From the NCBI RefSeq assembly GCF_016903815.1, contig NZ_CP069973.1: a DNA stretch of 64,000 nucleotides; one strand, 5' to 3'. Below are positions 1,766-51,509 of this stretch, in pieces. The position numbers and the translations under genes were made by a program. Position 1 is the first letter of the stretch. Each line of letters opens with the position of its first letter. The notes below the pieces were generated by a model. That model made no database searches, had not been told where the DNA came from, and saw nothing but the letters and a program-made list of their open reading frames with translations. This DNA is from Escherichia coli. GTDB taxonomy: Bacteria; Pseudomonadota; Gammaproteobacteria; Enterobacterales; Enterobacteriaceae.

Positions 1766-3255
1766 TGTTGTGCCTGGCGAATCTGTGCGCCGACATCCTG
1801 TAGGCTGGCTTCAATGCGACCTAACCAGTCGCCAGGGATAAACAGACATTTTTGCTGTTCGCTGAATAAAGCGTGTTGCTTGCGCCAGTCGCTTTCAAGC
1901 TCTTCCAGTTGTTGTTTTATTTCACCTGGCAGACCTTCAGCCGATGAACCGGGAAGTGCCAACGTACTGCCTTGTAAACTTACATCGCGTACAACAAGAT
2001 GTTGGGCGCTATCCACTTCCAGATTCAATTTCTGAGCAAAGCCGATACCGTTCAGTTTGCCGCGAATTTCACCACCTTTACTCAGCCACTGTTCCAGCGC
2101 GTTACGCTCAAAGGAGATATGAACCACTTCCATATCATGCAGTTTTAACGGTTTTTGCAGCAGCAGAGTCAGAGTGGAAGCAGTAACGTTAACAGGGAGT
2201 TGATACTGCTGACGACGGCTGAAAATGCCGCCCAGACGAATTACCGTTAAGGCTGTTTTATCGCTTTGTTGCTGCTGTAGTTGCAGGTGACGTTGCACAA
2301 TCGCGCCCAGGCGGGTCAACATCCCTTGCTGTTGCCAGGCATGACCGGTCATCAATACATCAATTTGTTGTTGTATCAAATTCAGGCTTTGCGCGTCATA
2401 CCACAGGCAATCTTTCAGCAAAATGAGATCAACCGGGGCAACAGCACTGCGACCGTTAAAAAAGGCGCTGGCCTGCAATAAGCGGATCGCTTTTTTCCAG
2501 CGACGATCCGAGACATAAGGCGCATCCGGTAATTTATCCAGTTGCTGGCGCAGCATAAAAATCAGCTCAAATACATGATCGGGCAGCGTAATTTCACCAA
2601 TCTCTTTCTGCCAGCGTTCATATTCTTCATCTGTGACCTGCAAGGAGGCAGGAACCGGATTGTCGTTTTCATCCTGTTGACTGGTCAGCATGGAGCGGAA
2701 ATTCGCTTTATCCTGCACTTTATCTAACCACAGACGAATCAGCATGCGGTCATATAACGCTTCCAGACTGCTGTCTGCTTCCGGCAGCTCGTTGGAGGCC
2801 GCCACCAGCAGGCGCATCGGGATTTTTTCTACGTGTGCACCGTTGCGGAACTGGCGCTCGTTAATGGCGGTGAGCAAGGTATTAAGAATTGCCGGGCCCG
2901 CTTTCCAGATCTCATCCAGAAAGACGATTTCTGCTTCCGGCAGGTAACCGCTGGTTAAACGTTCATAGCGCCCTTCATCTTTTAGCGCCTGAATAGAAAG
3001 GGGACCAAAAACCTCTTCCGGCGTGGAGAAGCGGGTCATCAGATATTCAAACGCGCGGGCATTCTGAAAGGCGAATTTTAAGCGCCGGGCGATCAAACTT
3101 TTGGCAATGCCTGGCGGGCCAAGGAGGAACACACTTTCACCACTTAATGCCGCTAATAAACACAAGCGGATGGCGTGGCTACGTTCATAAAGCCCCTTTT
3201 CCAACGAACTGCTCAGGCGGGAAATTCTTTCCGCTAATAAATGAGGGTGAGCCAT
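1759..3255 (-). CDS. ravA: AAA+ MoxR-family ATPase RavA
   Basis: ORF 1759..3279; Walker A motif GPPGIAKS; start placed at the internal ATG (3253..3255) giving [14 protein letters not shown], the recognised RavA N-terminus, 498 aa. Confidence 0.92.
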
Positions 3256-3477
3256 AATGAAGTGGCGTCCTTTCGTCAAAAGTTCTGCGTAAATTGCGAG
3301 TATAGACGTTTCTTGCTGGTGGCTAAAATAGTCTCAAAGGGGGGGTATTTTTCTTTGAGCCAGGTTAATGTGGCCGCATTTAGGAGTACGATTTTGCCGT
3401 TAATCGTGCATACTGTGCGCTTTTTTGTGGGCCAAGGGACTAAGCACACATTTCATATTTCAACGAAAGACTAGTCT

Positions 3478-5346
3478 ATGAGCACTGATAATAAGCAATC
3501 ATTGCCCGCGATTACCCTCGCGGCGATTGGAGTTGTCTACGGCGATATTGGTACCAGCCCGTTATATACACTTCGTGAATGTTTGTCCGGCCAGTTTGGT
3601 TTTGGCGTTGAACGCGATGCCGTGTTTGGCTTTTTATCGCTGATCTTCTGGCTGCTAATCTTTGTGGTTTCCATTAAATATCTCACCTTCGTGATGCGGG
3701 CAGATAACGCCGGTGAAGGGGGGATCCTGACGTTGATGTCGCTTGCCGGGCGTAATACGTCGGCGCGAACCACATCAATGCTGGTGATTATGGGGCTAAT
3801 CGGCGGCAGCTTTTTCTATGGTGAAGTCGTCATAACACCCGCTATTTCGGTGATGTCAGCCATTGAAGGTCTGGAAATCGTCGCCCCGCAGCTGGATACC
3901 TGGATAGTTCCCCTCTCAATCATCGTTCTCACTTTACTATTTATGATTCAAAAACATGGCACGGCTATGGTCGGTAAGCTGTTTGCGCCGATCATGCTGA
4001 CCTGGTTTTTGATTCTGGCAGTACTGGGGTTACGTAGCATTATTGCTAACCCGGAAGTGCTGCATGCGCTGAATCCGATGTGGGCGGTGCATTTCTTCCT
4101 TGAATACAAAACGGTTTCTTTTATTGCATTAGGGGCAGTGGTGCTGTCGATTACGGGGGTCGAGGCGCTGTATGCTGATATGGGGCACTTTGGTAAGTTC
4201 CCTATTCGCCTGGCGTGGTTCACCGTCGTATTACCTTCCTTGACCCTTAATTACTTCGGTCAGGGAGCGTTGTTGTTAAAGAACCCGGAAGCGATTAAGA
4301 ACCCGTTCTTCCTGTTGGCACCGGACTGGGCGCTGATCCCGCTGCTGATCATCGCCGCACTGGCGACGGTAATTGCCTCGCAGGCGGTTATCTCTGGCGT
4401 CTTCTCATTGACGCGTCAGGCGGTACGTCTGGGATATTTGTCGCCGATGCGCATTATTCACACCTCCGAAATGGAGTCAGGGCAAATCTATATTCCGTTT
4501 GTGAACTGGATGCTCTATGTCGCGGTCGTGATTGTGATTGTCAGCTTTGAGCACTCCAGCAACCTGGCGGCGGCGTACGGGATTGCGGTGACCGGAACCA
4601 TGGTGCTGACGTCTATTCTCTCGACTACCGTGGCGCGTCAGAACTGGCACTGGAATAAGTATTTTGTTGCGCTGATCCTGATTGCTTTCCTTTGTGTCGA
4701 TATTCCATTGTTCACCGCTAACCTCGATAAACTGCTCTCCGGCGGCTGGTTGCCATTGAGCCTCGGTACGGTGATGTTTATCGTGATGACCACCTGGAAG
4801 AGCGAACGTTTCCGTTTGCTGCGGCGGATGCATGAACATGGTAACTCTCTGGAGGCGATGATTGCTTCGCTGGAGAAATCACCGCCCGTTCGCGTGCCCG
4901 GGACCGCGGTGTATATGTCGCGTGCAATCAACGTCATTCCCTTTGCGCTGATGCATAACCTTAAACATAACAAGGTATTGCATGAGCGGGTGATTCTGTT
5001 AACTCTGCGCACCGAAGACGCGCCTTATGTCCATAACGTCCGTCGGGTACAGATTGAACAACTGTCGCCCACGTTCTGGCGCGTGGTGGCAAGTTATGGT
5101 TGGCGAGAAACGCCAAACGTGGAAGAAGTATTCCACCGCTGCGGTCTGGAAGGATTAAGTTGCCGGATGATGGAAACCTCCTTCTTTATGTCGCATGAGT
5201 CGTTGATCCTCGGCAAACGCCCGTGGTATTTGCGTCTGCGCGGCAAGCTGTACTTGCTGCTGCAACGTAATGCGCTGCGTGCGCCGGATCAATTTGAAAT
5301 CCCACCAAACAGGGTTATCGAACTGGGTACTCAGGTTGAAATCTAA
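3478..5346 (+). CDS. kup: KUP-family potassium uptake transporter
   Basis: 622-aa ORF rich in hydrophobic transmembrane segments; N-terminal [13 protein letters not shown] motif typical of Kup/TrkD. Confidence 0.96.
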
Positions 5347-39145: not shown

Positions 39146-40405
39146 ATGAATCTTACCGAATTAAAGAATACGCCGGTTTCTGAGCTGATCACTCTCGGCG
39201 AAAATATGGGGCTGGAAAACCTGGCTCGTATGCGTAAGCAGGACATTATTTTTGCCATCCTGAAGCAGCACGCAAAGAGTGGCGAAGATATCTTTGGTGA
39301 TGGCGTACTGGAGATATTGCAGGATGGATTTGGTTTCCTCCGTTCCGCAGACAGCTCCTACCTCGCCGGTCCTGATGACATCTACGTTTCCCCTAGCCAA
39401 ATCCGCCGTTTCAACCTCCGCACTGGTGATACCATCTCTGGTAAGATTCGCCCGCCGAAAGAAGGTGAACGCTATTTTGCGCTGCTGAAAGTTAACGAAG
39501 TTAACTTCGACAAACCTGAAAACGCCCGCAACAAAATCCTCTTTGAGAACTTAACCCCGCTGCACGCAAACTCTCGTCTGCGTATGGAACGTGGTAACGG
39601 TTCTACGGAAGATTTAACCGCTCGCGTACTGGATCTGGCATCACCTATCGGTCGTGGTCAGCGTGGTCTGATTGTGGCACCGCCGAAAGCCGGTAAAACC
39701 ATGCTGCTGCAGAACATTGCTCAGAGCATTGCTTACAACCACCCGGATTGCGTACTGATGGTTCTGCTGATCGACGAACGTCCGGAAGAAGTAACCGAGA
39801 TGCAGCGTCTGGTTAAAGGTGAAGTTGTTGCTTCTACCTTTGACGAACCCGCATCTCGCCACGTTCAGGTTGCGGAAATGGTGATCGAGAAGGCGAAACG
39901 CCTGGTTGAGCACAAGAAAGACGTTATCATTCTGCTCGACTCCATCACTCGTCTGGCGCGCGCTTACAACACCGTTGTTCCGGCGTCAGGTAAAGTGCTG
40001 ACCGGTGGTGTGGATGCCAACGCCCTGCATCGTCCGAAACGCTTCTTCGGTGCGGCGCGTAACGTGGAAGAGGGCGGCAGCCTGACCATCATCGCTACCG
40101 CGCTTATCGATACCGGTTCCAAGATGGACGAAGTTATCTACGAAGAGTTTAAAGGTACAGGCAACATGGAACTGCACCTCTCTCGTAAGATCGCTGAAAA
40201 ACGCGTCTTCCCGGCAATCGACTACAACCGTTCCGGTACCCGTAAAGAAGAGCTGCTCACTACTCAGGAAGAACTGCAGAAAATGTGGATCCTGCGCAAA
40301 ATCATTCACCCGATGGGCGAAATCGATGCAATGGAATTCCTCATTAATAAACTGGCAATGACCAAGACCAATGACGATTTCTTCGAAATGATGAAACGCT
40401 CATAA
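39146..40405 (+). CDS. rho: transcription termination factor Rho
   Basis: ORF 39074..40405; start at the ATG giving [24 protein letters not shown] (419 aa); Walker A PPKAGKT. Confidence 0.98.
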
Positions 40406-40420
40406 ATTTGTCTTATGCCA

Positions 40421-40448
40421 AAAACGCCACGTGTTTACGTGGCGTTTT
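40421..40448 (+). terminator. intrinsic terminator downstream of rho
   Basis: AAAACGCCACGTGTTTACGTGGCGTTTT hairpin followed by GTTTTTAT. Confidence 0.85.
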
Positions 40449-40632
40449 GTTTTTATATCTGTAATCTTAACGGCGTTATAACAAATACGAGTTATGTTTG
40501 TTTATTGCGCATAACACGAATCACGTGGTTGTTTTTTGCACAAGGTTGGTGGGTTCAGAGCAGAGTTTCCCTTCTGAATAATGGCCTTCGTGGTTATACT
40601 TCTGCTAATAATTTTCTCTGAGAGCATGCATT

Positions 40633-41736
40633 GTGAATTTACTGACAGTGAGTACTGATCTCATCAGTATTTTTTTATTCACGACACTGTTTCTGTTTTT
40701 TGCCCGTAAGGTGGCAAAAAAAGTCGGTTTAGTGGATAAACCTAACTTCCGCAAACGTCACCAGGGATTGATACCTCTCGTTGGGGGGATTTCGGTTTAC
40801 GCAGGGATTTGCTTCACGTTCGGAATTGTCGATTACTATATTCCGCATGCATCTCTCTATCTCGCTTGTGCCGGTGTGCTTGTTTTCATTGGCGCGCTGG
40901 ATGACCGTTTTGATATCAGCGTAAAAATCCGTGCCACCATACAGGCCGCTGTTGGCATTGTTATGATGGTGTTCGGCAAACTTTATCTCAGTAGCCTGGG
41001 TTATATCTTTGGCTCCTGGGAGATGGTGCTCGGACCGTTTGGCTACTTCCTGACGCTATTTGCCGTCTGGGCGGCCATTAATGCGTTCAACATGGTTGAT
41101 GGCATTGATGGCTTGCTGGGCGGGTTGTCCTGCGTCTCGTTTGCAGCAATCGGTATGATTTTGTGGTTCGACGGGCAAACCAGCCTTGCAATCTGGTGTT
41201 TTGCGATGATCGCCGCCATCCTGCCATACATCATGCTTAACCTTGGTATCCTGGGTCGCCGCTACAAAGTCTTTATGGGTGATGCGGGCAGTACGCTGAT
41301 TGGTTTTACCGTTATCTGGATCCTGCTCGAAACGACCCAGGGCAAAACCCATCCCATCAGCCCGGTTACCGCTTTGTGGATAATCGCCATTCCGCTAATG
41401 GATATGGTGGCGATTATGTACCGTCGCCTGCGTAAAGGCATGAGTCCGTTCTCTCCTGATCGCCAGCATATTCACCATTTGATCATGCGTGCCGGGTTTA
41501 CTTCCCGCCAGGCGTTTGTGCTGATTACCCTTGCCGCAGCTCTGCTCGCCTCCATTGGGGTGCTGGCAGAATATTCTCATTTTGTCCCGGAGTGGGTCAT
41601 GCTGGTGCTCTTTTTGCTAGCATTCTTCCTCTATGGATATTGCATTAAGCGTGCCTGGAAAGTTGCTCGCTTTATTAAGCGCGTAAAACGCAGACTGCGT
41701 AGAAATCGTGGTGGCAGCCCCAATTTAACCAAATAA
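40633..41736 (+). CDS. wecA: UDP-GlcNAc:undecaprenyl-phosphate GlcNAc-1-phosphate transferase
   Basis: 367-aa polytopic membrane ORF with GTG start; first gene of the ECA cluster. Confidence 0.95.
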   Translation: MNLLTVSTDLISIFLFTTLFLFFARKVAKKVGLVDKPNFRKRHQGLIPLVGGISVYAGICFTFGIVDYYIPHASLYLACAGVLVFIGALDDRFDISVKIRATIQAAVGIVMMVFGKLYLSSLGYIFGSWEMVLGPFGYFLTLFAVWAAINAFNMVDGIDGLLGGLSCVSFAAIGMILWFDGQTSLAIWCFAMIAAILPYIMLNLGILGRRYKVFMGDAGSTLIGFTVIWILLETTQGKTHPISPVTALWIIAIPLMDMVAIMYRRLRKGMSPFSPDRQHIHHLIMRAGFTSRQAFVLITLAAALLASIGVLAEYSHFVPEWVMLVLFLLAFFLYGYCIKRAWKVARFIKRVKRRLRRNRGGSPNLTK

Positions 41737-41747
41737 ATGAGGATGTG

Positions 41748-42794
41748 ATGACACAACCAATGCCTGGGAAACCGGCCGAAGACGCTGAAAATGAACTGGA
41801 TATTCGTGGGTTGTTTCGTACCTTGTGGGCTGGGAAGCTATGGATTATTGGCATGGGGCTGGCGTTTGCGTTAATCGCGCTGGCGTATACGTTTTTTGCT
41901 CGTCAGGAGTGGAGCTCGACGGCGATTACCGATCGTCCAACGGTGAATATGCTGGGGGGATATTACTCGCAGCAGCAATTTTTGCGTAACCTGGATGTCC
42001 GTTCAAACATGGCTTCTGCCGACCAACCATCGGTCATGAACGAAGCCTATAAAGAGTTTGTTATGCAACTGGCCTCGTGGGATACCCGCAGAGAGTTCTG
42101 GCTGCAAACCGACTATTACAAGCAGCGGATGGTGGGCAACAGCAAAGCCGATGCGGCGTTGCTGGATGAAATGATTAACAACATCCAGTTTATCCCCGGA
42201 GACTTTACCCGCGCGGTCAATGACAGCGTGAAGCTGATTGCCGAAACCGCGCCTGACGCTAATAACCTGTTACGTCAGTATGTTGCTTTTGCCAGCCAGC
42301 GTGCAGCCAGCCATCTGAATGATGAGCTGAAAGGTGCATGGGCGGCACGTACCATCCAGATGAAAGCTCAGGTGAAGCGTCAGGAAGAGGTGGCGAAAGC
42401 TATCTACGACCGCCGGATGAACAGTATTGAACAGGCGCTGAAAATTGCTGAGCAGCATAATATTTCGCGCAGTGCGACAGATGTGCCTGCCGAGGAATTA
42501 CCTGATTCAGAAATGTTCCTGCTTGGGCGTCCAATGCTCCAGGCTCGACTGGAAAATTTACAGGCCGTCGGTCCGGCCTTTGATCTCGACTATGATCAGA
42601 ATCGGGCCATGTTAAACACCCTGAATGTTGGTCCAACCCTGGATCCGCGTTTTCAGACCTATCGCTATTTGCGTACGCCGGAAGAACCGGTAAAACGCGA
42701 TAGCCCACGTCGTGCCTTCCTGATGATTATGTGGGGCATTGTCGGGGGGCTGATCGGGGCTGGTGTCGCATTAACCCGCCGTTGCTCGAAATAG
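41748..42794 (+). CDS. wzzE: ECA polysaccharide chain-length modulation protein
   Basis: 348-aa ORF (start at ATG 41748) with N- and C-terminal transmembrane segments flanking a periplasmic domain. Confidence 0.94.
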
Positions 42795-42849: not shown

Positions 42850-43980
42850 GTGAAAGTACTGACTGTATTTGGTACGCGCCCGGAAGCCATCAAGATGGCG
42901 CCGTTGGTGCATGCGTTGGCAAAAGATCCTTTTTTTGAGGCTAAAGTTTGCGTCACTGCGCAGCATCGGGAGATGCTCGATCAGGTGCTGAAACTCTTTT
43001 CCATTGTACCTGACTACGATCTCAACATAATGCAGCCAGGACAGGGCCTGACAGAGATAACCTGTCGGATTCTGGAAGGGCTAAAACCAATTCTTGCCGA
43101 GTTCAAACCAGACGTCGTGCTGGTTCACGGCGATACTACTACAACGCTGGCAACCAGCCTGGCGGCGTTTTATCAGCGTATTCCTGTTGGTCACGTTGAG
43201 GCTGGTCTGCGCACGGGCGATCTCTATTCGCCGTGGCCGGAAGAGGCTAACCGTACATTGACCGGGCATCTGGCGATGTATCACTTCTCTCCAACCGAAA
43301 CTTCCCGGCAAAACTTGCTGCGTGAAAATGTTGCTGACAGCCGAATCTTCATTACCGGTAATACAGTTATTGATGCACTGTTATGGGTGCGTGACCAGGT
43401 GATGAGCAGCGATACGCTGCGTTCAGAACTGGCGGCAAATTACCCGTTTATCGACCCCAATAAAAAAATGATTCTGGTGACCGGTCACAGGCGTGAGAGC
43501 TTCGGTCGTGGCTTTGAAGAAATCTGCCATGCGCTGGCAGACATCGCCACCACGCACCAGGACATCCAGATTGTCTATCCAGTGCATCTCAACCCGAACG
43601 TCAGAGAGCCGGTCAATCGCATTCTGGGGCACGTGAAAAATGTCATTCTGATCGATCCCCAGGAGTATTTACCGTTTGTCTGGCTGATGAACCACGCCTG
43701 GCTGATTTTGACCGACTCAGGCGGCATTCAGGAAGAAGCGCCTTCGCTGGGGAAACCGGTGCTGGTAATGCGCGATACCACTGAGCGTCCGGAAGCGGTG
43801 ACGGCGGGTACGGTGCGTCTGGTAGGCACGGATAAGCAGCGAATTGTCGAGGAAGTGACGCGTCTTTTAAAAGACGAAAACGAATATCAAGCTATGAGCC
43901 GCGCCCATAACCCGTATGGTGATGGTCAGGCATGCTCTCGCATTCTGGAAGCGTTAAAAAATAATCGGATATCACTATGA
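42850..43980 (+). CDS. wecB: UDP-N-acetylglucosamine 2-epimerase
   Basis: ORF 42808..43980; N-terminus (M)[22 protein letters not shown] begins at an in-frame GTG (42850); 376 aa. Confidence 0.94.
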
Positions 43981-45239
43981 GTTTTGCGACCATTTCTGTT
44001 ATCGGACTGGGTTACATCGGGCTGCCTACAGCAGCTGCGTTTGCCTCTCGGCAAAAACAGGTGATTGGTGTCGATATCAACAAACATGCGGTTGATACCA
44101 TCAATCGTGGCGAAATCCATATCGTCGAACCTGATTTGGCGAGCGTAGTAAAAACTGCCGTAGAAGGCGGTTTTTTACGAGCGAGCACGACGCCAGTTGA
44201 AGCGGATGCCTGGCTGATTGCTGTACCCACGCCGTTTAAAGGCGATCATGAGCCAGATATGACCTACGTTGAATCGGCTGCTCGCTCCATTGCGCCAGTG
44301 CTGAAAAAAGGCGCGCTGGTGATCCTTGAATCCACCTCGCCGGTGGGGTCAACCGAGAAGATGGCAGAATGGTTAGCAGAGATGCGTCCAGATCTCACTT
44401 TCCCGCAGCAGGTGGGCGAGCAGGCGGACGTCAACATTGCTTACTGCCCGGAACGCGTGTTACCGGGCCAGGTAATGGTCGAGCTGATTAAAAACGATCG
44501 CGTGATTGGTGGTATGACGCCGGTTTGTTCGGCCCGCGCCAGCGAACTGTACAAAATTTTCCTCGAAGGTGAGTGTGTCGTCACTAACTCGCGGACGGCG
44601 GAAATGTGTAAGCTCACCGAAAACAGCTTCCGCGATGTGAATATCGCTTTTGCTAACGAACTGTCGCTGATTTGTGCCGATCAGGGAATTAACGTCTGGG
44701 AACTGATTCGCCTGGCGAATCGCCACCCTCGCGTCAATATTCTTCAGCCTGGCCCTGGCGTGGGCGGTCACTGCATCGCTGTTGATCCGTGGTTTATCGT
44801 GGCACAGAACCCCCAGCAGGCGCGGCTTATCCGTACTGCGCGCGAAGTGAACGATCACAAACCGTTCTGGGTTATCGATCAGGTGAAAGCGGCGGTTGCC
44901 GACTGCCTTGCTGCTACCGATAAACGCGCCAGTGAACTGAAAATCGCCTGCTTTGGTCTGGCGTTTAAACCGAATATTGATGACCTGCGCGAAAGCCCGG
45001 CGATGGAAATCGCTGAACTGATCGCCCAGTGGCATAGCGGCGAAACGCTGGTTGTTGAGCCTAACATCCACCAGTTGCCGAAAAAACTGACCGGGCTTTG
45101 TACTCTGGCGCAGCTTGACGAGGCGCTGGCAACGGCAGACGTGCTGGTGATGCTGGTCGATCATATCCAGTTCAAAGCCATCAGCGGCGACAACGTTCGT
45201 CAGCAATATGTCGTCGATGCTAAAGGAGTCTGGCGCTGA
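43977..45239 (+). CDS. wecC: UDP-N-acetyl-D-mannosamine dehydrogenase
   Basis: 420-aa ORF; NAD-binding GLGYIGLP; start overlaps the wecB stop (ATGA). Confidence 0.95.
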
Positions 45240-45279
45240 TACTGATTACCGTGAATGACTGTTTTGAGGGAGTCACACA

Positions 45280-45954
45280 ATGCCCGTCCGCGCCAGTATT
45301 GAGCCACTAACCTGGGAAAACGCCTTCTTTGGTGTTAACAGCGCCATTGTGCGCATTACGTCTGAAGCACCGCTCCTGACGCCAGACGCGTTAGCGCCGT
45401 GGTCACGGGTGCAGGCCAAAATTGCGGCATCAAATACGGGTGAACTGGATACCCTGCAACAGCTGGGATTCTCCCTGGTAGAAGGTGAAGTTGATTTGGC
45501 GCTACCCGTGAACAATGTCGGTGATAGCGGCGCAGAAGTGGCACAAGAGACAGATATTCCCGCATTACGTCAGTTAGCCAGCGCCGCATTTGCGCAAAGC
45601 CGTTTTCGTGCGCCGTGGTATGCGCCTGACGCCAGCGGTCGCTTTTATGCACAGTGGATTGAAAATGCCGTGCGCGGCACCTTTGATCATCAATGTCTGA
45701 TTTTACGTGCGGCGTCCGGCGCTATTCGCGGCTATGTCTCTTTACGGGAACTCAATGCGACAGATGCGCGAATTGGCCTGCTGGCTGGACGCGGTGCAGG
45801 TGCTGAGCTGATGCAAACGGCGCTAAACTGGGCGTATGCTCGCGGTAAAACAACTTTGCGGGTGGCGACCCAGATGGGCAACACCGCCGCGCTTAAACGA
45901 TACATACAAAGTGGTGCGAATGTAGAAAGCACCGCGTACTGGTTATACAGGTGA
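45280..45954 (+). CDS. wecD: dTDP-fucosamine acetyltransferase (GNAT family)
   Basis: 224-aa [29 protein letters not shown]...; begins only 40 bp after the wecC stop, with no rffG or rffH between them. Confidence 0.92.
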
Positions 45955-45958
45955 TCAC

Positions 45959-47089
45959 ATGATTCCATTTAACGCACCGCCGGTGGTGGGAACCGAACTC
46001 GACTATATGCAGTCGGCAATGGGTAGCGGCAAACTGTGTGGCGATGGCGGTTTTACCCGTCGCTGCCAGCAGTGGCTGGAGCAACGTTTTGGCAGCGCCA
46101 AAGTGTTACTGACGCCGTCCTGCACCGCTTCGCTGGAGATGGCGGCGCTGCTGCTCGATATCCAGCCTGGCGATGAAGTGATCATGCCGAGCTACACCTT
46201 TGTCTCCACTGCCAATGCCTTTGTGCTGCGTGGCGCAAAAATCGTTTTTGTGGATGTTCGCCCGGACACCATGAACATCGACGAAACGTTGATTGAAGCA
46301 GCGATCACCGACAAAACGCGCGTTATCGTGCCGGTCCATTACGCGGGTGTGGCCTGCGAAATGGACACCATTATGGCGTTGGCGAAAAAGCATAATCTGT
46401 TTGTGGTGGAAGATGCTGCTCAGGGCGTGATGTCCACTTACAAAGGGCGTGCACTGGGAACCATTGGTCATATTGGCTGCTTTAGCTTCCATGAAACCAA
46501 AAACTACACGGCGGGCGGTGAAGGCGGCGCGACGCTGATTAACGATAAAGCGTTGATCGAACGAGCCGAGATCATCCGTGAAAAAGGCACAAACCGCAGC
46601 CAGTTCTTCCGTGGTCAGGTCGATAAATATACCTGGCGCGATATCGGCTCCAGCTATTTGATGTCCGATCTGCAAGCTGCGTACCTGTGGGCGCAACTGG
46701 AAGCAGCAGATCGTATCAATCAGCAACGTCTGGCGCTGTGGCAAAACTACTACGATGCGTTAGCACCTCTGGCGAAAGCCGGGCGTATCGAGCTGCCGTC
46801 GATTCCCGATGGCTGCGTGCAGAACGCGCATATGTTCTACATTAAACTGCGGGATATTGATGACCGGAGCGCGTTGATTAACTTTCTGAAAGAAGCGGAA
46901 ATCATGGCGGTGTTCCATTACATTCCGCTGCACGGTTGCCCTGCGGGGGAACGCTTTGGTGAGTTCCACGGTGAAGATCGCTACACCACCAAAGAGAGTG
47001 AGCGCCTGCTGCGCCTGCCGCTGTTCTACAACCTGTCGCCCGTCAATCAGCGTACGGTAATTGCGACTTTGTTGAACTACTTCTCCTGA
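45959..47089 (+). CDS. wecE: dTDP-4-amino-4,6-dideoxygalactose transaminase
   Basis: 376-aa ORF of the DegT/ArnB aminotransferase family. Confidence 0.95.
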   Translation: MIPFNAPPVVGTELDYMQSAMGSGKLCGDGGFTRRCQQWLEQRFGSAKVLLTPSCTASLEMAALLLDIQPGDEVIMPSYTFVSTANAFVLRGAKIVFVDVRPDTMNIDETLIEAAITDKTRVIVPVHYAGVACEMDTIMALAKKHNLFVVEDAAQGVMSTYKGRALGTIGHIGCFSFHETKNYTAGGEGGATLINDKALIERAEIIREKGTNRSQFFRGQVDKYTWRDIGSSYLMSDLQAAYLWAQLEAADRINQQRLALWQNYYDALAPLAKAGRIELPSIPDGCVQNAHMFYIKLRDIDDRSALINFLKEAEIMAVFHYIPLHGCPAGERFGEFHGEDRYTTKESERLLRLPLFYNLSPVNQRTVIATLLNYFS

Positions 47090-47090
47090 T

Positions 47091-48341
47091 ATGTCGTTGG
47101 CAAAAGCGTCCTTGTGGACGGCGGCCAGTACACTGGTCAAGATTGGTGCCGGGTTACTGGTCGGTAAGTTGCTGGCGGTGTCATTTGGTCCGGCGGGGCT
47201 TGGGCTGGCGGCAAATTTCCGCCAGTTGATTACCGTGCTCGGCGTGCTTGCCGGGGCTGGCATCTTTAATGGCGTAACCAAATACGTTGCTCAGTACCAT
47301 GATAATCCCCAACAGCTGCGCCGCGTGGTCGGCACTTCATCAGCGATGGTACTTGGCTTCTCTACGCTAATGGCGCTGGTTTTTGTGCTGGCAGCAGCGC
47401 CAATCAGCCAGGGATTGTTTGGTAATACCGACTATCAGGGACTGGTGCGTTTAGTGGCGCTGGTGCAAATGGGGATTGCCTGGGGCAACCTGTTACTGGC
47501 GTTGATGAAAGGCTTTCGCGATGCCGCAGGTAATGCGTTATCCCTGATTGTCGGCAGCTTGATTGGCGTTTTTGCGTACTACGTCAGTTACCGTTTGGGC
47601 GGTTATGAAGGGGCGTTGCTGGGTCTGGCGCTGATTCCCGCGCTGGTGGTGATTCCTGCCGTCATCATGCTAATTAAGCGTGGTGCAATCCCGTTAAGCT
47701 ATCTGAAACCCAGCTGGGATAACGGCCTGGCAGGGCAGTTGAGCAAATTTACGCTCATGGCGTTGATTACGTCGGTGACCTTGCCTGTTGCTTACATCAT
47801 GATGCGTAAACTGCTGGCGGCGCAGTATAGCTGGGATGAGGTGGGGATCTGGCAAGGGGTGAGCAGTATTTCCGATGCCTACCTGCAATTTATTACGGCA
47901 TCGTTCAGCGTATATTTGCTGCCCACGTTGTCGCGGCTAACGGAAAAGCGCGATATCACCCGGGAAGTGGTTAAATCGCTGAAATTCGTCTTACCGGCAG
48001 TGGCGGCGGCGAGTTTTACCGTCTGGTTGCTGCGTGATTTTGCTATCTGGCTGCTGTTGTCGAATAAATTTACCGCTATGCGCGATCTCTTTGCCTGGCA
48101 GTTAGTGGGTGATGTGTTAAAAGTGGGCGCTTATGTCTTTGGTTATCTGGTGATCGCCAAAGCGTCACTGCGGTTTTATATTCTGGCGGAAGTCAGCCAG
48201 TTCACTTTATTGATGGTATTTGCCCACTGGCTAATCCCTGCGCATGGTGCACTGGGCGCGGCGCAGGCCTATATGGCAACCTATATCGTCTATTTTTCTC
48301 TTTGTTGTGGCGTGTTTTTACTCTGGCGTAGGCGGGCATGA
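47091..48341 (+). CDS. wzxE: ECA lipid III flippase
   Basis: 416-aa polytopic membrane ORF. Confidence 0.94.
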
Positions 48342-49417
48342 CTGTACTGATTCACGTACTGGGATCGGATATCCCTCACCATAACCGAACCGTTCTGCGG
48401 TTTTTCAACGACGCGCTGGCCGCGACGAGCGAGCACGCGCGCGAGTTTATGGTTGTTGGCAAGGACGACGGCTTAAGTGATAGCTGTCCGGCGCTTTCTG
48501 TGCAATTTTTCCCTGGGAAAAAATCGCTGGCGGAAGCGGTCATCGCGAAAGCAAAAGCTAACCGTCAGCAGCGTTTTTTCTTCCACGGTCAGTTCAATCC
48601 CACACTGTGGCTGGCTCTGCTGAGTGGTGGCATTAAGCCCAGCCAGTTTTACTGGCATATCTGGGGGGCAGACCTGTACGAGCTTTCCAGTGGCTTGAGA
48701 TATAAGCTTTTTTACCCACTACGTCGCCTGGCGCAAAAGCGAGTCGGCTGTGTATTTGCCACCCGCGGCGATTTGAGCTTTTTTGCCAAAACGCATCCAA
48801 AGGTGCGGGGCGAACTGCTGTACTTCCCGACGCGGATGGACCCTTCACTCAATATGATGGCGAATGATCGGCAACGTAAAGGGAAAATGACCATTCTGGT
48901 GGGGAACTCCGGCGACCGCAGCAATGAGCATATTGCTGCCTTGCGCGCCGTTCATCAGCAATTTGGCGATACGGTAAAAGTGGTGGCGCCGATGGGATAT
49001 CCGCCTAATAACGAAGCGTACATCGAGGAAGTTCGTCAGGCGGGGCTGGCGTTATTCAGCGAAGAAAATCTGCAAATTCTGAACGAAAAACTGGAATTTG
49101 ACGCCTATCTGGCGCTACTTCGTCAGTGCGATCTTGGTTACTTTATTTTTGCCCGCCAGCAGGGCATTGGTACGCTGTGCTTACTAATTCAGGCGGGCAT
49201 TCCTTGTGTGCTTAACCGGGAAAATCCGTTCTGGCAGGATATGACGGAACAGCATTTGCCGGTGCTGTTTACTACCGACGATCTCAACGAGGATATTGTG
49301 CGTGAAGCGCAGCGCCAGTTGGCGTCGGTGGATAAAAACACCATTGCCTTCTTTAGCCCGAACTATCTGCAAGGCTGGCAGCGGGCGTTGGCGATTGCCG
49401 CCGGGGAGGTTGCATGA
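48338..49417 (+). CDS. wecF: TDP-Fuc4NAc:lipid II Fuc4NAc transferase
   Basis: 359-aa ORF overlapping the wzxE stop by 4 bp. Confidence 0.94.
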
Positions 49418-50766
49418 GTCTGCTGCAATTCAGTGGCCTGTTTGTTGTCTGGCTGCTCTGCACGCTGTTTATTGCCACGCTGACCTGGTTTGAGTTTCGC
49501 CGTGTGCGTTTTAACTTCAATGTCTTCTTTTCATTGCTGTTTTTGCTCACCTTTTTCTTCGGCTTCCCGCTGACCAGCGTGCTGGTATTTCGCTTTGATG
49601 TTGGTGTCGCGCCGCCAGAAATCTTGTTGCAGGCGTTGCTTTCTGCGGGCTGCTTCTACGCGGTTTACTACGTCACCTACAAAACCCGCCTACGCAAACG
49701 CGTTGCCGATGTACCGCGCCGTCCGCTGTTTACCATGAACCGCGTGGAGACCAATCTCACGTGGGTGATCCTGATGGGCGTCGCGCTGGTAAGCGTCGGC
49801 ATCTTCTTCATGCACAACGGCTTTTTGCTGTTCCGGCTTAACTCCTACAGTCAGATCTTCTCCAGTGAAGTCTCCGGCGTGGCGTTAAAACGCTTCTTTT
49901 ACTTTTTCATCCCGGCGATGCTGGTGGTCTACTTTCTGCGCCAGGACAGCAAAGCGTGGCTGTTTTTCCTCGTCAGCACGGTCGCCTTTGGCTTGCTGAC
50001 TTATATGATTGTCGGCGGCACTCGCGCCAATATCATCATCGCATTCGCTATCTTCCTGTTTATTGGCATTATTCGCGGCTGGATTTCGTTGTGGATGCTG
50101 GCGGCGGCGGGCGTGCTGGGGATTGTGGGCATGTTCTGGCTGGCGCTAAAACGCTATGGAATGAATGTGAGCGGTGATGAAGCGTTCTATACGTTTCTCT
50201 ATCTCACCCGCGATACCTTTTCGCCGTGGGAGAATCTGGCATTGCTGTTGCAGAACTACGACAACATCGACTTCCAGGGTCTGGCTCCCATTGTCCGCGA
50301 TTTCTATGTCTTTATCCCTTCCTGGCTGTGGCCGGGTCGCCCGAGTATGGTACTGAACACCGCCAACTACTTTACCTGGGAAGTGCTGAATAACCACTCC
50401 GGGCTGGCGATCTCGCCTACGCTTATAGGCTCACTGGTGGTGATGGGCGGCGCGTTGTTCATCCCGCTCGGGGCGATTGTGGTTGGCCTGATCATCAAAT
50501 GGTTCGACTGGCTGTATGAGCTGGGCAACCGCGAGACTAATCGCTATAAGGCTGCGATATTGCACAGTTTCTGCTTCGGGGCGATCTTCAATATGATCGT
50601 GCTGGCACGTGAAGGGCTGGATTCGTTTGTCTCACGCGTGGTCTTTTTTATCGTGGTCTTCGGCGCATGTCTGATGATCGCAAAACTGTTGTACTGGCTT
50701 TTTGAAAGCGCCGGACTCATTCATAAACGAACAAAATCATCGCTCCGGACGCAGGTTGAAGGATAA
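49414..50766 (+). CDS. wzyE: ECA polymerase
   Basis: 450-aa polytopic membrane ORF overlapping the wecF stop by 4 bp. Confidence 0.94.
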
Positions 50767-50768
50767 CA

Positions 50769-51509
50769 ATGAATAACAACACCACGGCACCGACCTATAC
50801 GCTGCGTGGCTTACAGTTGATCGGTTGGCGTGATATGCAGCACGCCCTCGATTATCTGTTCGCTGACGGGCAGCTTAAGCAGGGAACGCTGGTTGCCATT
50901 AATGCTGAAAAAATGCTGACCATTGAAGATAACGCCGAGGTCAGGGAGTTAATTAACGCTGCCGAATTTAAATATGCGGATGGCATCAGCGTTGTACGTT
51001 CAGTACGTAAAAAGTACCCGCAGGCGCAGGTTTCCCGCGTTGCCGGGGCGGATCTCTGGGAAGAGCTGATGGCGCGCGCAGGCAAAGAAGGGACACCGGT
51101 ATTTCTTGTGGGCGGTAAACCTGAAGTGCTGGCGCAAACTGAAGCTAAACTGCGCAACCAGTGGAATGTGAATATCGTTGGCAGCCAGGATGGTTATTTT
51201 AAACCCGAGCAGCGTCAGGCGCTGTTTGAACGCATTCATGCCAGCGGAGCGCAAATCGTCACCGTTGCGATGGGATCGCCAAAGCAGGAGATCTTCATGC
51301 GCGACTGCCGTCTGGTGCATCCAGATGCGCTGTATATGGGCGTTGGCGGGACTTACGATGTTTTCACCGGTCACGTGAAACGCGCACCGAAAATCTGGCA
51401 AACGCTGGGGCTGGAGTGGCTCTACCGCCTGCTTTCGCAGCCGAGCCGCCTTAAGCGTCAGCTTCGTTTGCTGCGTTATTTACGCTGGCATTACACCGGC
51501 AACCTCTGA
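50769..51509 (+). CDS. wecG: UDP-ManNAcA transferase
   Basis: 246-aa ORF; last gene of the ECA cluster. Confidence 0.94.

Follow-up and report, generated by a model that had tools for sequence, protein, structure and literature searches.

In the canonical ECA cluster, wecA-wzzE-wecB-wecC-rffG-rffH-wecD-wecE-wzxE-wecF-wzyE-wecG, wecC and wecD are separated by two genes, whose products are a dTDP-glucose 4,6-dehydratase (RffG) and a glucose-1-phosphate thymidylyltransferase (RffH). In the window (the whole 64-kb stretch of E. coli DNA analysed here), wecD follows wecC almost immediately. The locus therefore raises the question of whether this arrangement is natural, how it arose, and which enzymes would supply ECA synthesis with its dTDP-sugar precursor.

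The wec operon of the window

The operon and its junction comprise the following features.

40633..41736, + strand: wecA, first gene of the ECA operon (TIGR02380, 575 bits; PGAP annotation of the identical region in strain 7/2)
41748..42794, + strand: wzzE (NF008645, 692 bits; start according to PGAP)
42850..43980, + strand: wecB (TIGR00236, 618 bits; start according to PGAP)
43977..45239, + strand: wecC, 420 aa, stop codon TGA at 45237..45239 (NF008286, 856 bits over residues 1-420)
45240..45279, + strand: wecC-wecD spacer, 40 bp, in place of about 1.95 kb of rffG-rffH (sequence and K-12 alignment)
45266..45272, + strand: Shine-Dalgarno-like GAGGGAG, its 3' end 7 nt before the wecD ATG (direct sequence reading)
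45280..45954, + strand: wecD (rffC), 224 aa, ATG start at 45280 (NF008212, 355 bits over residues 1-224; PGAP agrees)
45959..47089, + strand: wecE (rffA) (TIGR02379, 737 bits)
47091..48341, + strand: wzxE (NF011679, 809 bits)
48338..49417, + strand: wecF (rffT), Fuc4NAc transferase (NF002752, 850 bits)
49414..50766, + strand: wzyE (NF002820, 868 bits)
50769..51509, + strand: wecG (rffM), last gene of the operon (NF002980, 445 bits)

A first-pass annotation had placed 40 bp between the wecC stop codon and the wecD ATG and had claimed that rffG and rffH are missing from this position. The sequence, the open reading frames and the family matches confirmed the gap. The gene content was checked against K-12 MG1655, where wecC and wecD flank rffG (1068 bp) and rffH (882 bp). 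Alignment showed that homology to K-12 breaks exactly at the wecC stop and at the wecD start, and tblastn with the K-12 RffG and RffH proteins found no match in the 64-kb window (best E-value 0.15), so that the claimed absence holds. The wecC gene is intact and has the length of its K-12 counterpart. The wecD gene starts with ATG, whereas the K-12 gene starts with a GTG embedded in rffH.

The spacer reads TACTGATTACCGTGAATGACTGTTTTGAGGGAGTCACACA. Promoter-like and terminator-like sites were looked for within it and none were found; it had no match in Rfam at E-values up to 1, and its folding was not unusual (z-score -1.32). Its Shine-Dalgarno-like motif stands at the same distance from the ATG of wecD as GGAGT does from the GTG start in K-12. 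Judged by these properties, the spacer simply links the two cistrons and provides the GAGGGAG Shine-Dalgarno sequence before the wecD ATG. The operon remains one uninterrupted unit, in which wecD has its own GGAG ribosome-binding site and ATG start.

The ten wec genes are co-oriented and contiguous, as they are in the PGAP annotation of the identical region, and all ten products gave full-length matches above the curated cut-offs (NCBIfam equivalog or exception models). The operon lies downstream of rho and upstream of thrP (yifK), in agreement with the annotation of strain 7/2, and the window is collinear with K-12 positions 3966000-3982000. The 12-gene wec (rfe-rff) operon of K-12 occupies the same rho-thrP site and has the ten genes in the same order and orientation, with 96-100% nucleotide identity. 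The two operons differ in that the window has a 40-bp linker in place of rffG-rffH and a rare haplotype in the last 75 bp of wecC. With gene order and flanks collinear from rho to thrP, the suggestion that no rearrangement took place was borne out.

When the stretch from wecB to wzxE was compared with that of ST2747, an E. coli lineage with the same junction, there were 48 synonymous and 11 non-synonymous codon differences and no stop codons. PGAP flagged none of the wec genes as a pseudogene in two lineages. These codon differences indicate purifying selection on the wec genes after the loss of rffG and rffH (hereafter rffGH). Separately, the rho-wecA intergenic region (window positions 40329-40729) was only 85-90% identical to that of K-12, compared with 98-100% for neighbouring genes; as this region holds the wec promoter, a regulatory difference is possible.

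Distribution of the junction in E. coli

We searched 5426 complete RefSeq genomes of E. coli, amounting to 28 Gb. A 1.6-kb query spanning the junction had a contiguous match in 116 genomes, and the 44-nt junction was 100% identical in exactly those 116 and present nowhere else in this sequence. The K-12 rffG-rffH pair was matched in 5309 of the 5426 genomes, so rffGH absence in E. coli is essentially one allele. The annotation had allowed that reference E. coli genomes might also have wecD directly after wecC, which is not the case: K-12 and the 5309 matched genomes carry the two genes.

The carriers were isolated on several continents, from humans, pigs and cattle as well as from dogs, a cat, wild birds and surface water. 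Over 24 kb, clinical strains that include 2779, 5283 and KY 1497 matched the window at 100%, and 113 genomes were at least 99% identical to it over this stretch. The label "strain 405" appears in several of the matching records, whose O-antigen genes are annotated as O102; from these labels we infer that the matching lineage is ST405. Bovine isolate EE72d and dog isolate PEC011 both belong to this O102 lineage. The junction was also carried by porcine O139:H1 (ETEC) strains and by ST2747 strains. In the three ST2747 genomes the spacer was identical, while the flanking wec genes differed by about 1% from those of the window. Thus, rffGH loss happened once within E. coli and predates the split of the carrier lineages, and the rffGH-less state has become fixed in a clade to which the O102 clinical lineage, porcine O139:H1 and ST2747 belong.

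An odd gene order could also result from an assembly mis-join, which the first-pass annotation had mentioned, or from a laboratory-engineered deletion, and nothing beyond the odd order itself speaks for either. The junction was base-identical in 116 independent complete assemblies from various laboratories, hosts and countries, which excludes a mis-joined contig. The exact WecD protein was found in 2031 blocks of public assemblies, thousands more assemblies encode the same WecD allele, and all contigs examined have the same neighbours, with wecC 40 bp upstream. On direct reading, the spacer has neither an FRT nor a lox sequence, as had been noted earlier; such a site takes up 34 bp and would leave no room for primer scars within 40 bp, and the junction is shared by natural isolates. 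We consider the probability of either artefact to be negligible.

Loss of rffG and rffH across Enterobacteriaceae

We assembled a comparative set by a WecD-based scan with one genome per species, which gave 80 Enterobacteriaceae loci (L005-L084, with the wecC-wecD interval at about 3000-5000 in each), and sorted these by tblastn. Considering the wecC-wecD locus only, the order wecC-rffG-rffH-wecD was found in 44 of the 80 species representatives, and wecC was followed directly by wecD, with a gap of 0-82 bp, in 34. The 34 included members of Enterobacter (with Enterobacter cloacae), Leclercia, Lelliottia, Kosakonia, Silvania, Pseudescherichia, Yokenella and Franconibacter, as well as several Citrobacter species (C. 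sedlakii/youngae among them), Raoultella planticola and terrigena, Klebsiella michiganensis and Pseudocitrobacter faecalis. Only rffH was missing at the locus in the remaining two, Citrobacter amalonaticus (L017) and Kluyvera genomosp. 3 (L036), which may represent intermediate or separate states of decay. The wecC match in L036 was partial (query residues 12-264).

The rffGH-less loci had at least five types of junction. The 82-bp spacer of Raoultella and K. michiganensis is a visible fusion of the start of rffG (TGAGAACGGTTCTGGTCACCGG...) and the end of rffH, and the 82-bp remnant of rffG 5' and rffH 3' sequence was also present in two "Enterobacter sp." genomes. The spacer of P. faecalis is 37 bp long and shares CT.TTT.GAGGG.GT and the ATG start with the window. 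These operons thus resemble that of the window in that wecC abuts wecD, some rffG-5'/rffH-3' remnants persist, and wecD often starts with ATG; they differ in junction sequence, none being equal to the window spacer. In these taxa the rffGH-less state extends to whole species or genera; within E. coli, only a 2% minority clade shows it. As far as these loci can tell, rffGH loss from the wec operon is recurrent and common in the family.

Remnants in the spacer and origin of the junction

The first-pass annotation had read the spacer as the scar of a clean internal deletion, with the N-terminus of an RffG-type dehydratase at its left and possibly a retained RffH C-terminus at its right. Two further features bear on this reading.

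45238..45251, + strand: rffG-type 5' remnant GATACTGATTACCG, reading ILIT in the rffG frame with ATA for ATG (match to rffG of other genera)
45166..45221, + strand: minority wecC 3' haplotype, 11 differences from K-12 in 56 bp (K-12 comparison)

The frame that starts at 45239 runs, as stated in the annotation, through the wecD start to a TAA at 45308..45310. ILIT corresponds to residues 4-7 of K-12 RffG (MRKILITGG...), and the ATA at 45239 occupies the place of the K-12 rffG ATG, which overlaps the wecC stop. Of the left 14 nt, 13 agreed with rffG of other genera (loci L055 and L049). Agreement with E. coli rffG was 10 of 12 bases, and this requires leaving out the rffG stretch that separates the match from the wecC stop; the ILIT codons are thus closer to rffG of other genera than to that of E. 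coli. At its left end the spacer therefore looks like a genuine remnant at the rffG start position, in line with the earlier reading. The tail did not fare likewise. RffH ends in ...LLELLRARPRQY (...ARPRQY), which corresponds to a different frame in the spacer, and likeness to the rffH 3' end is limited to GGAGTxAC..TG, that is, to the ribosome-binding site and start of wecD.

If E. coli rffG-rffH had been removed in one clean step, the first rffG codons would be fused to the last rffH codons. The ILIT codons in the rffG frame at the rffG start position, the GGAGTxAC...TG before wecD at the K-12 distance and the unchanged flanking gene order are all in keeping with such an event. However, the best chimera of an E. 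coli rffG prefix and rffH suffix (from K-12 or GF4-3) had 22-23 mismatches to the 40 positions of the spacer, hardly better than shuffled spacers (mean 27.4, p ~0.06), and no spacer k-mer of 9 or more bases was present in rffG-rffH. In addition, the ILIT codon match needs three substitutions besides the skipped rffG sequence, the tail is in the wrong frame for RffH, and the flanks differ by only 1-2% from other E. coli, which leaves too little time for a scar divergence of about 50%. Of the clean deletion proposed initially, the disappearance of rffG-rffH and the ILIT remnant stand, and the clean fusion does not. These comparisons show that the scar is not E. coli-like and that the junction did not arise by clean deletion, in one step, from the species' own sequence; we accordingly give such an event a low probability.

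The junction thus derives either from an older, decayed rffG/rffH scar that was imported by recombination, or from an in-situ deletion with filler. In the case of import, the junction would have come ready-made from an enterobacterial lineage that had long been rffGH-less, with crossovers in the last ~30 bp of wecC and the first ~30 bp of wecD. The 34 rffGH-less species representatives with their decayed scars of 0-82 bp provide potential sources, the left end of the spacer matches rffG of other genera over a longer stretch than that of E. coli, and the shared motif and ATG of P. faecalis point in the same direction. Moreover, conservation across genera is nearly complete at the end of wecC and in the rffH/wecD overlap, both of which could serve as crossover anchors. 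Against import, a BLAST search of the junction tract against the 80 Enterobacteriaceae wec loci, a set without E. fergusonii, E. marmotae and E. ruysiae, found the spacer in none of them; two exact 22-mer scans of metagenome contigs gave zero matches; and there is no foreign SNP footprint unique to the junction, as the neighbouring wecC haplotype also occurs in E. coli GF4-3, whose rffGH is normal. We regard import as plausible, if short of probable.

An in-situ deletion with filler or secondary changes is likewise a serious possibility without being the expected outcome, its strictly clean version being improbable at best. No IS end, inverted repeat or target-site duplication was found at the junction, and the spacer was unmatched elsewhere in the 28 Gb of E. 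coli sequence. We also considered filler copied from nearby DNA and rejected it, since the spacer shares only chance 11-mers with the window.

The end of wecC next to the spacer was examined separately. The minority haplotype, which falls within the last 75 bp of the gene, entails four amino-acid changes (S397I, V401A, N403S and H408R). It was present in 117 of the 5426 genomes, namely the 116 rffGH-less ones and GF4-3, a guinea-fowl isolate (NZ_CP053258.1; L086, 4100-4221) in which the haplotype is followed by ordinary rffG-rffH and whose flanking sequence is unrelated to the rffGH-less clade. The tract was tried as the footprint of an import and discarded, because GF4-3 combines it with normal rffGH. 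Site by site, the wecC variants of the window are common to two other Escherichia species representatives and those of K-12 to E. albertii. Since each haplotype is also present in other Escherichia species, both are segregating variants of long standing, and the wecC tract therefore says little about how the deletion arose. More generally, wecC was strongly mosaic among E. coli lineages, with haplotypes common to several Escherichia species.

Supply of the dTDP-sugar precursor

Two consequences of the missing genes had been envisaged in the annotation: supply of the dTDP-sugar by rmlB/rmlA paralogues in an O-antigen cluster, or loss of Fuc4NAc incorporation into ECA. In the pathway that makes dTDP-L-rhamnose for the O-antigen, RmlA and RmlB (RfbA and RfbB) carry out the two reactions that RffH and RffG perform. 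RmlA and RmlB are a back-up in K-12 and would be the sole source in the rffGH-less clade. According to two reviews (PMC7439462 and PMC12212991, which cite Marolda and Valvano 1995), RmlA/RmlB partly substitute for RffH/RffG in K-12. ECA has been assayed in a delta-rfbA delta-rffH E. coli strain, which has neither thymidylyltransferase, and expression of an RmlA variant in this strain gave detectable ECA (PMC12773781).

The rfb genes were read in four genomes that represent three O-antigen types. An intact rfbB-rfbD-rfbA-rfbC cluster was located next to galF in the O102 strains 7/2 and PEC011, in O139:H1 strain P15-25 and in ST2747, which has the third O-type. Strain 7/2 has exactly one rfbA-type and one rfbB-type copy. 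Across the population, 5425 of the 5426 genomes had a homologue of rfbA, and likewise 5425 one of rfbB, that matched over at least 80% of the query length, a count that reflects BLAST coverage and not gene-by-gene integrity. Given that 116 genomes are without rffH and rffG, at least 115 of the 116 must carry rml-type rfbA and rfbB. Counts of places suggest that roughly half of E. coli have both paralogue pairs, that most others have rffGH only, that about 2% have rmlBA only, and that at most one genome has neither pair. One genome of the 5426 was unmatched in each of the wecC-wecD, rfbA and rfbB searches, not necessarily the same one each time.

Together, the intact clusters in the genomes inspected and the retention of both gene types in at least 115 of the 116 carriers favour the first consequence, supply through rmlB/rmlA. 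The second would mean that the Fuc4NAc branch is dead and that the clade makes no ECA or a truncated form. The loss of the dedicated precursor genes would fit this; against it, wecD, wecE, wecF, wzxE, wzyE and wecG are full length, above curated cut-offs and free of pseudogene flags, the synonymous to non-synonymous ratio of 48:11 speaks for purifying selection on genes including wecD, wecE and wecF, and rfbA and rfbB are present. In K-12, a block of ECA synthesis after lipid II is deleterious. A dead branch should therefore select for loss of wecA-wecG function, which is not seen. We judge a dead Fuc4NAc branch to be very unlikely.

The best explanation overall, which we hold with good confidence, is a natural ten-gene wec operon with the rml genes supplying the ECA precursor. 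The operon is a heritable form in which the 40-bp linker takes the place of rffH and rffG, the dedicated dTDP-glucose branch. RmlA and RmlB would provide dTDP-4-keto-6-deoxy-glucose for WecE, WecD and WecF, and to judge by the intact wecD, wecE and wecF and the presence of rfbA and rfbB, ECA with its Fuc4NAc-ManNAcA-GlcNAc repeat would probably still be made. Its synthesis would then depend on the O-antigen locus and on RmlA, which is feedback-regulated. As RmlA is inhibited by dTDP-L-rhamnose (PMC12773781), supply of the ECA precursor would come under control of the O-antigen pathway.

Implications

The ECA and O-antigen loci may thus be coupled. A more far-reaching version is that both ECA synthesis and the avoidance of a toxic lipid II-ECA build-up are tied to the O-antigen locus, with the clade locked into rml O-types and flux under dTDP-rhamnose/RmlA control, and that this rewiring is recurrent (34 of 80 species representatives), the scar perhaps being mobile via the invariant wecC and wecD ends. 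We put this version forward tentatively and think it rather doubtful. If it were true, the 12-gene operon would not be the only common state but would stand beside a second one, and the evolution of ECA would be coupled to that of the O-antigen. The rffGH loss predicts an epistatic constraint on O-antigen switching. The three O-types observed may be too few independent lineages to show such a constraint, because about half of all E. coli carry rml anyway.

The 12-gene operon is given as the Enterobacterales standard in ECA reviews and Tn-seq work (PMC7439462, PMC12212991 and PMC11376589). In the literature we found only this canonical operon and no description of a natural absence of rffG/rffH. 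In contrast to the standard, both precursor genes are missing from the locus in 2% of the complete E. coli genomes and in 34 of the 80 related species: the canonical form is not universal. At the same time, the rffGH-less arrangement is plainly annotated in many RefSeq genomes and widespread in other genera, and it is a minor variant explained by known redundancy. At least one thymidylyltransferase and at least one dehydratase are kept in all but at most one of the 5426 genomes, which illustrates at population level that the paralogue pairs are redundant and the function is kept. The loss is real and natural, and the result is a fairly ordinary operon variant of modest interest.

The carriers include a globally sampled multidrug-resistant clinical lineage. 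Because rfbA and rfbB are single-copy (strain 7/2), inhibitors of RmlA/RmlB or mutations in them should remove O-antigen rhamnose and ECA together. A block of RmlA/RmlB would also be expected to cause Und-P sequestration stress, as suggested by K-12 work. The clade could thus serve as a natural test bed for RmlA-targeted anti-virulence ideas.

Other observations at polysaccharide loci

The searches for rfb homologues also returned a few dozen E. coli plasmid records (38 places; e.g., NZ_CP139197.1, NZ_CP081325.1 and NZ_LR890610.1) with genes of the rfbB and rfbA types, so that plasmids, too, carry dTDP-sugar precursor genes in E. coli. In EE72d (L090, NZ_CP065136.1, ~22400-50000), a Mu-like prophage lies in the colanic-acid cluster after cpsG; its genes include those for tail, baseplate, DUF935 portal and transglycosylase proteins. 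A copy of IS200C was found beside the O-antigen region both in strain 7/2, between ugd and gnd (L003, 43387-43845), and in ST2747, between hisI and wzzB (L088, 756-1214).
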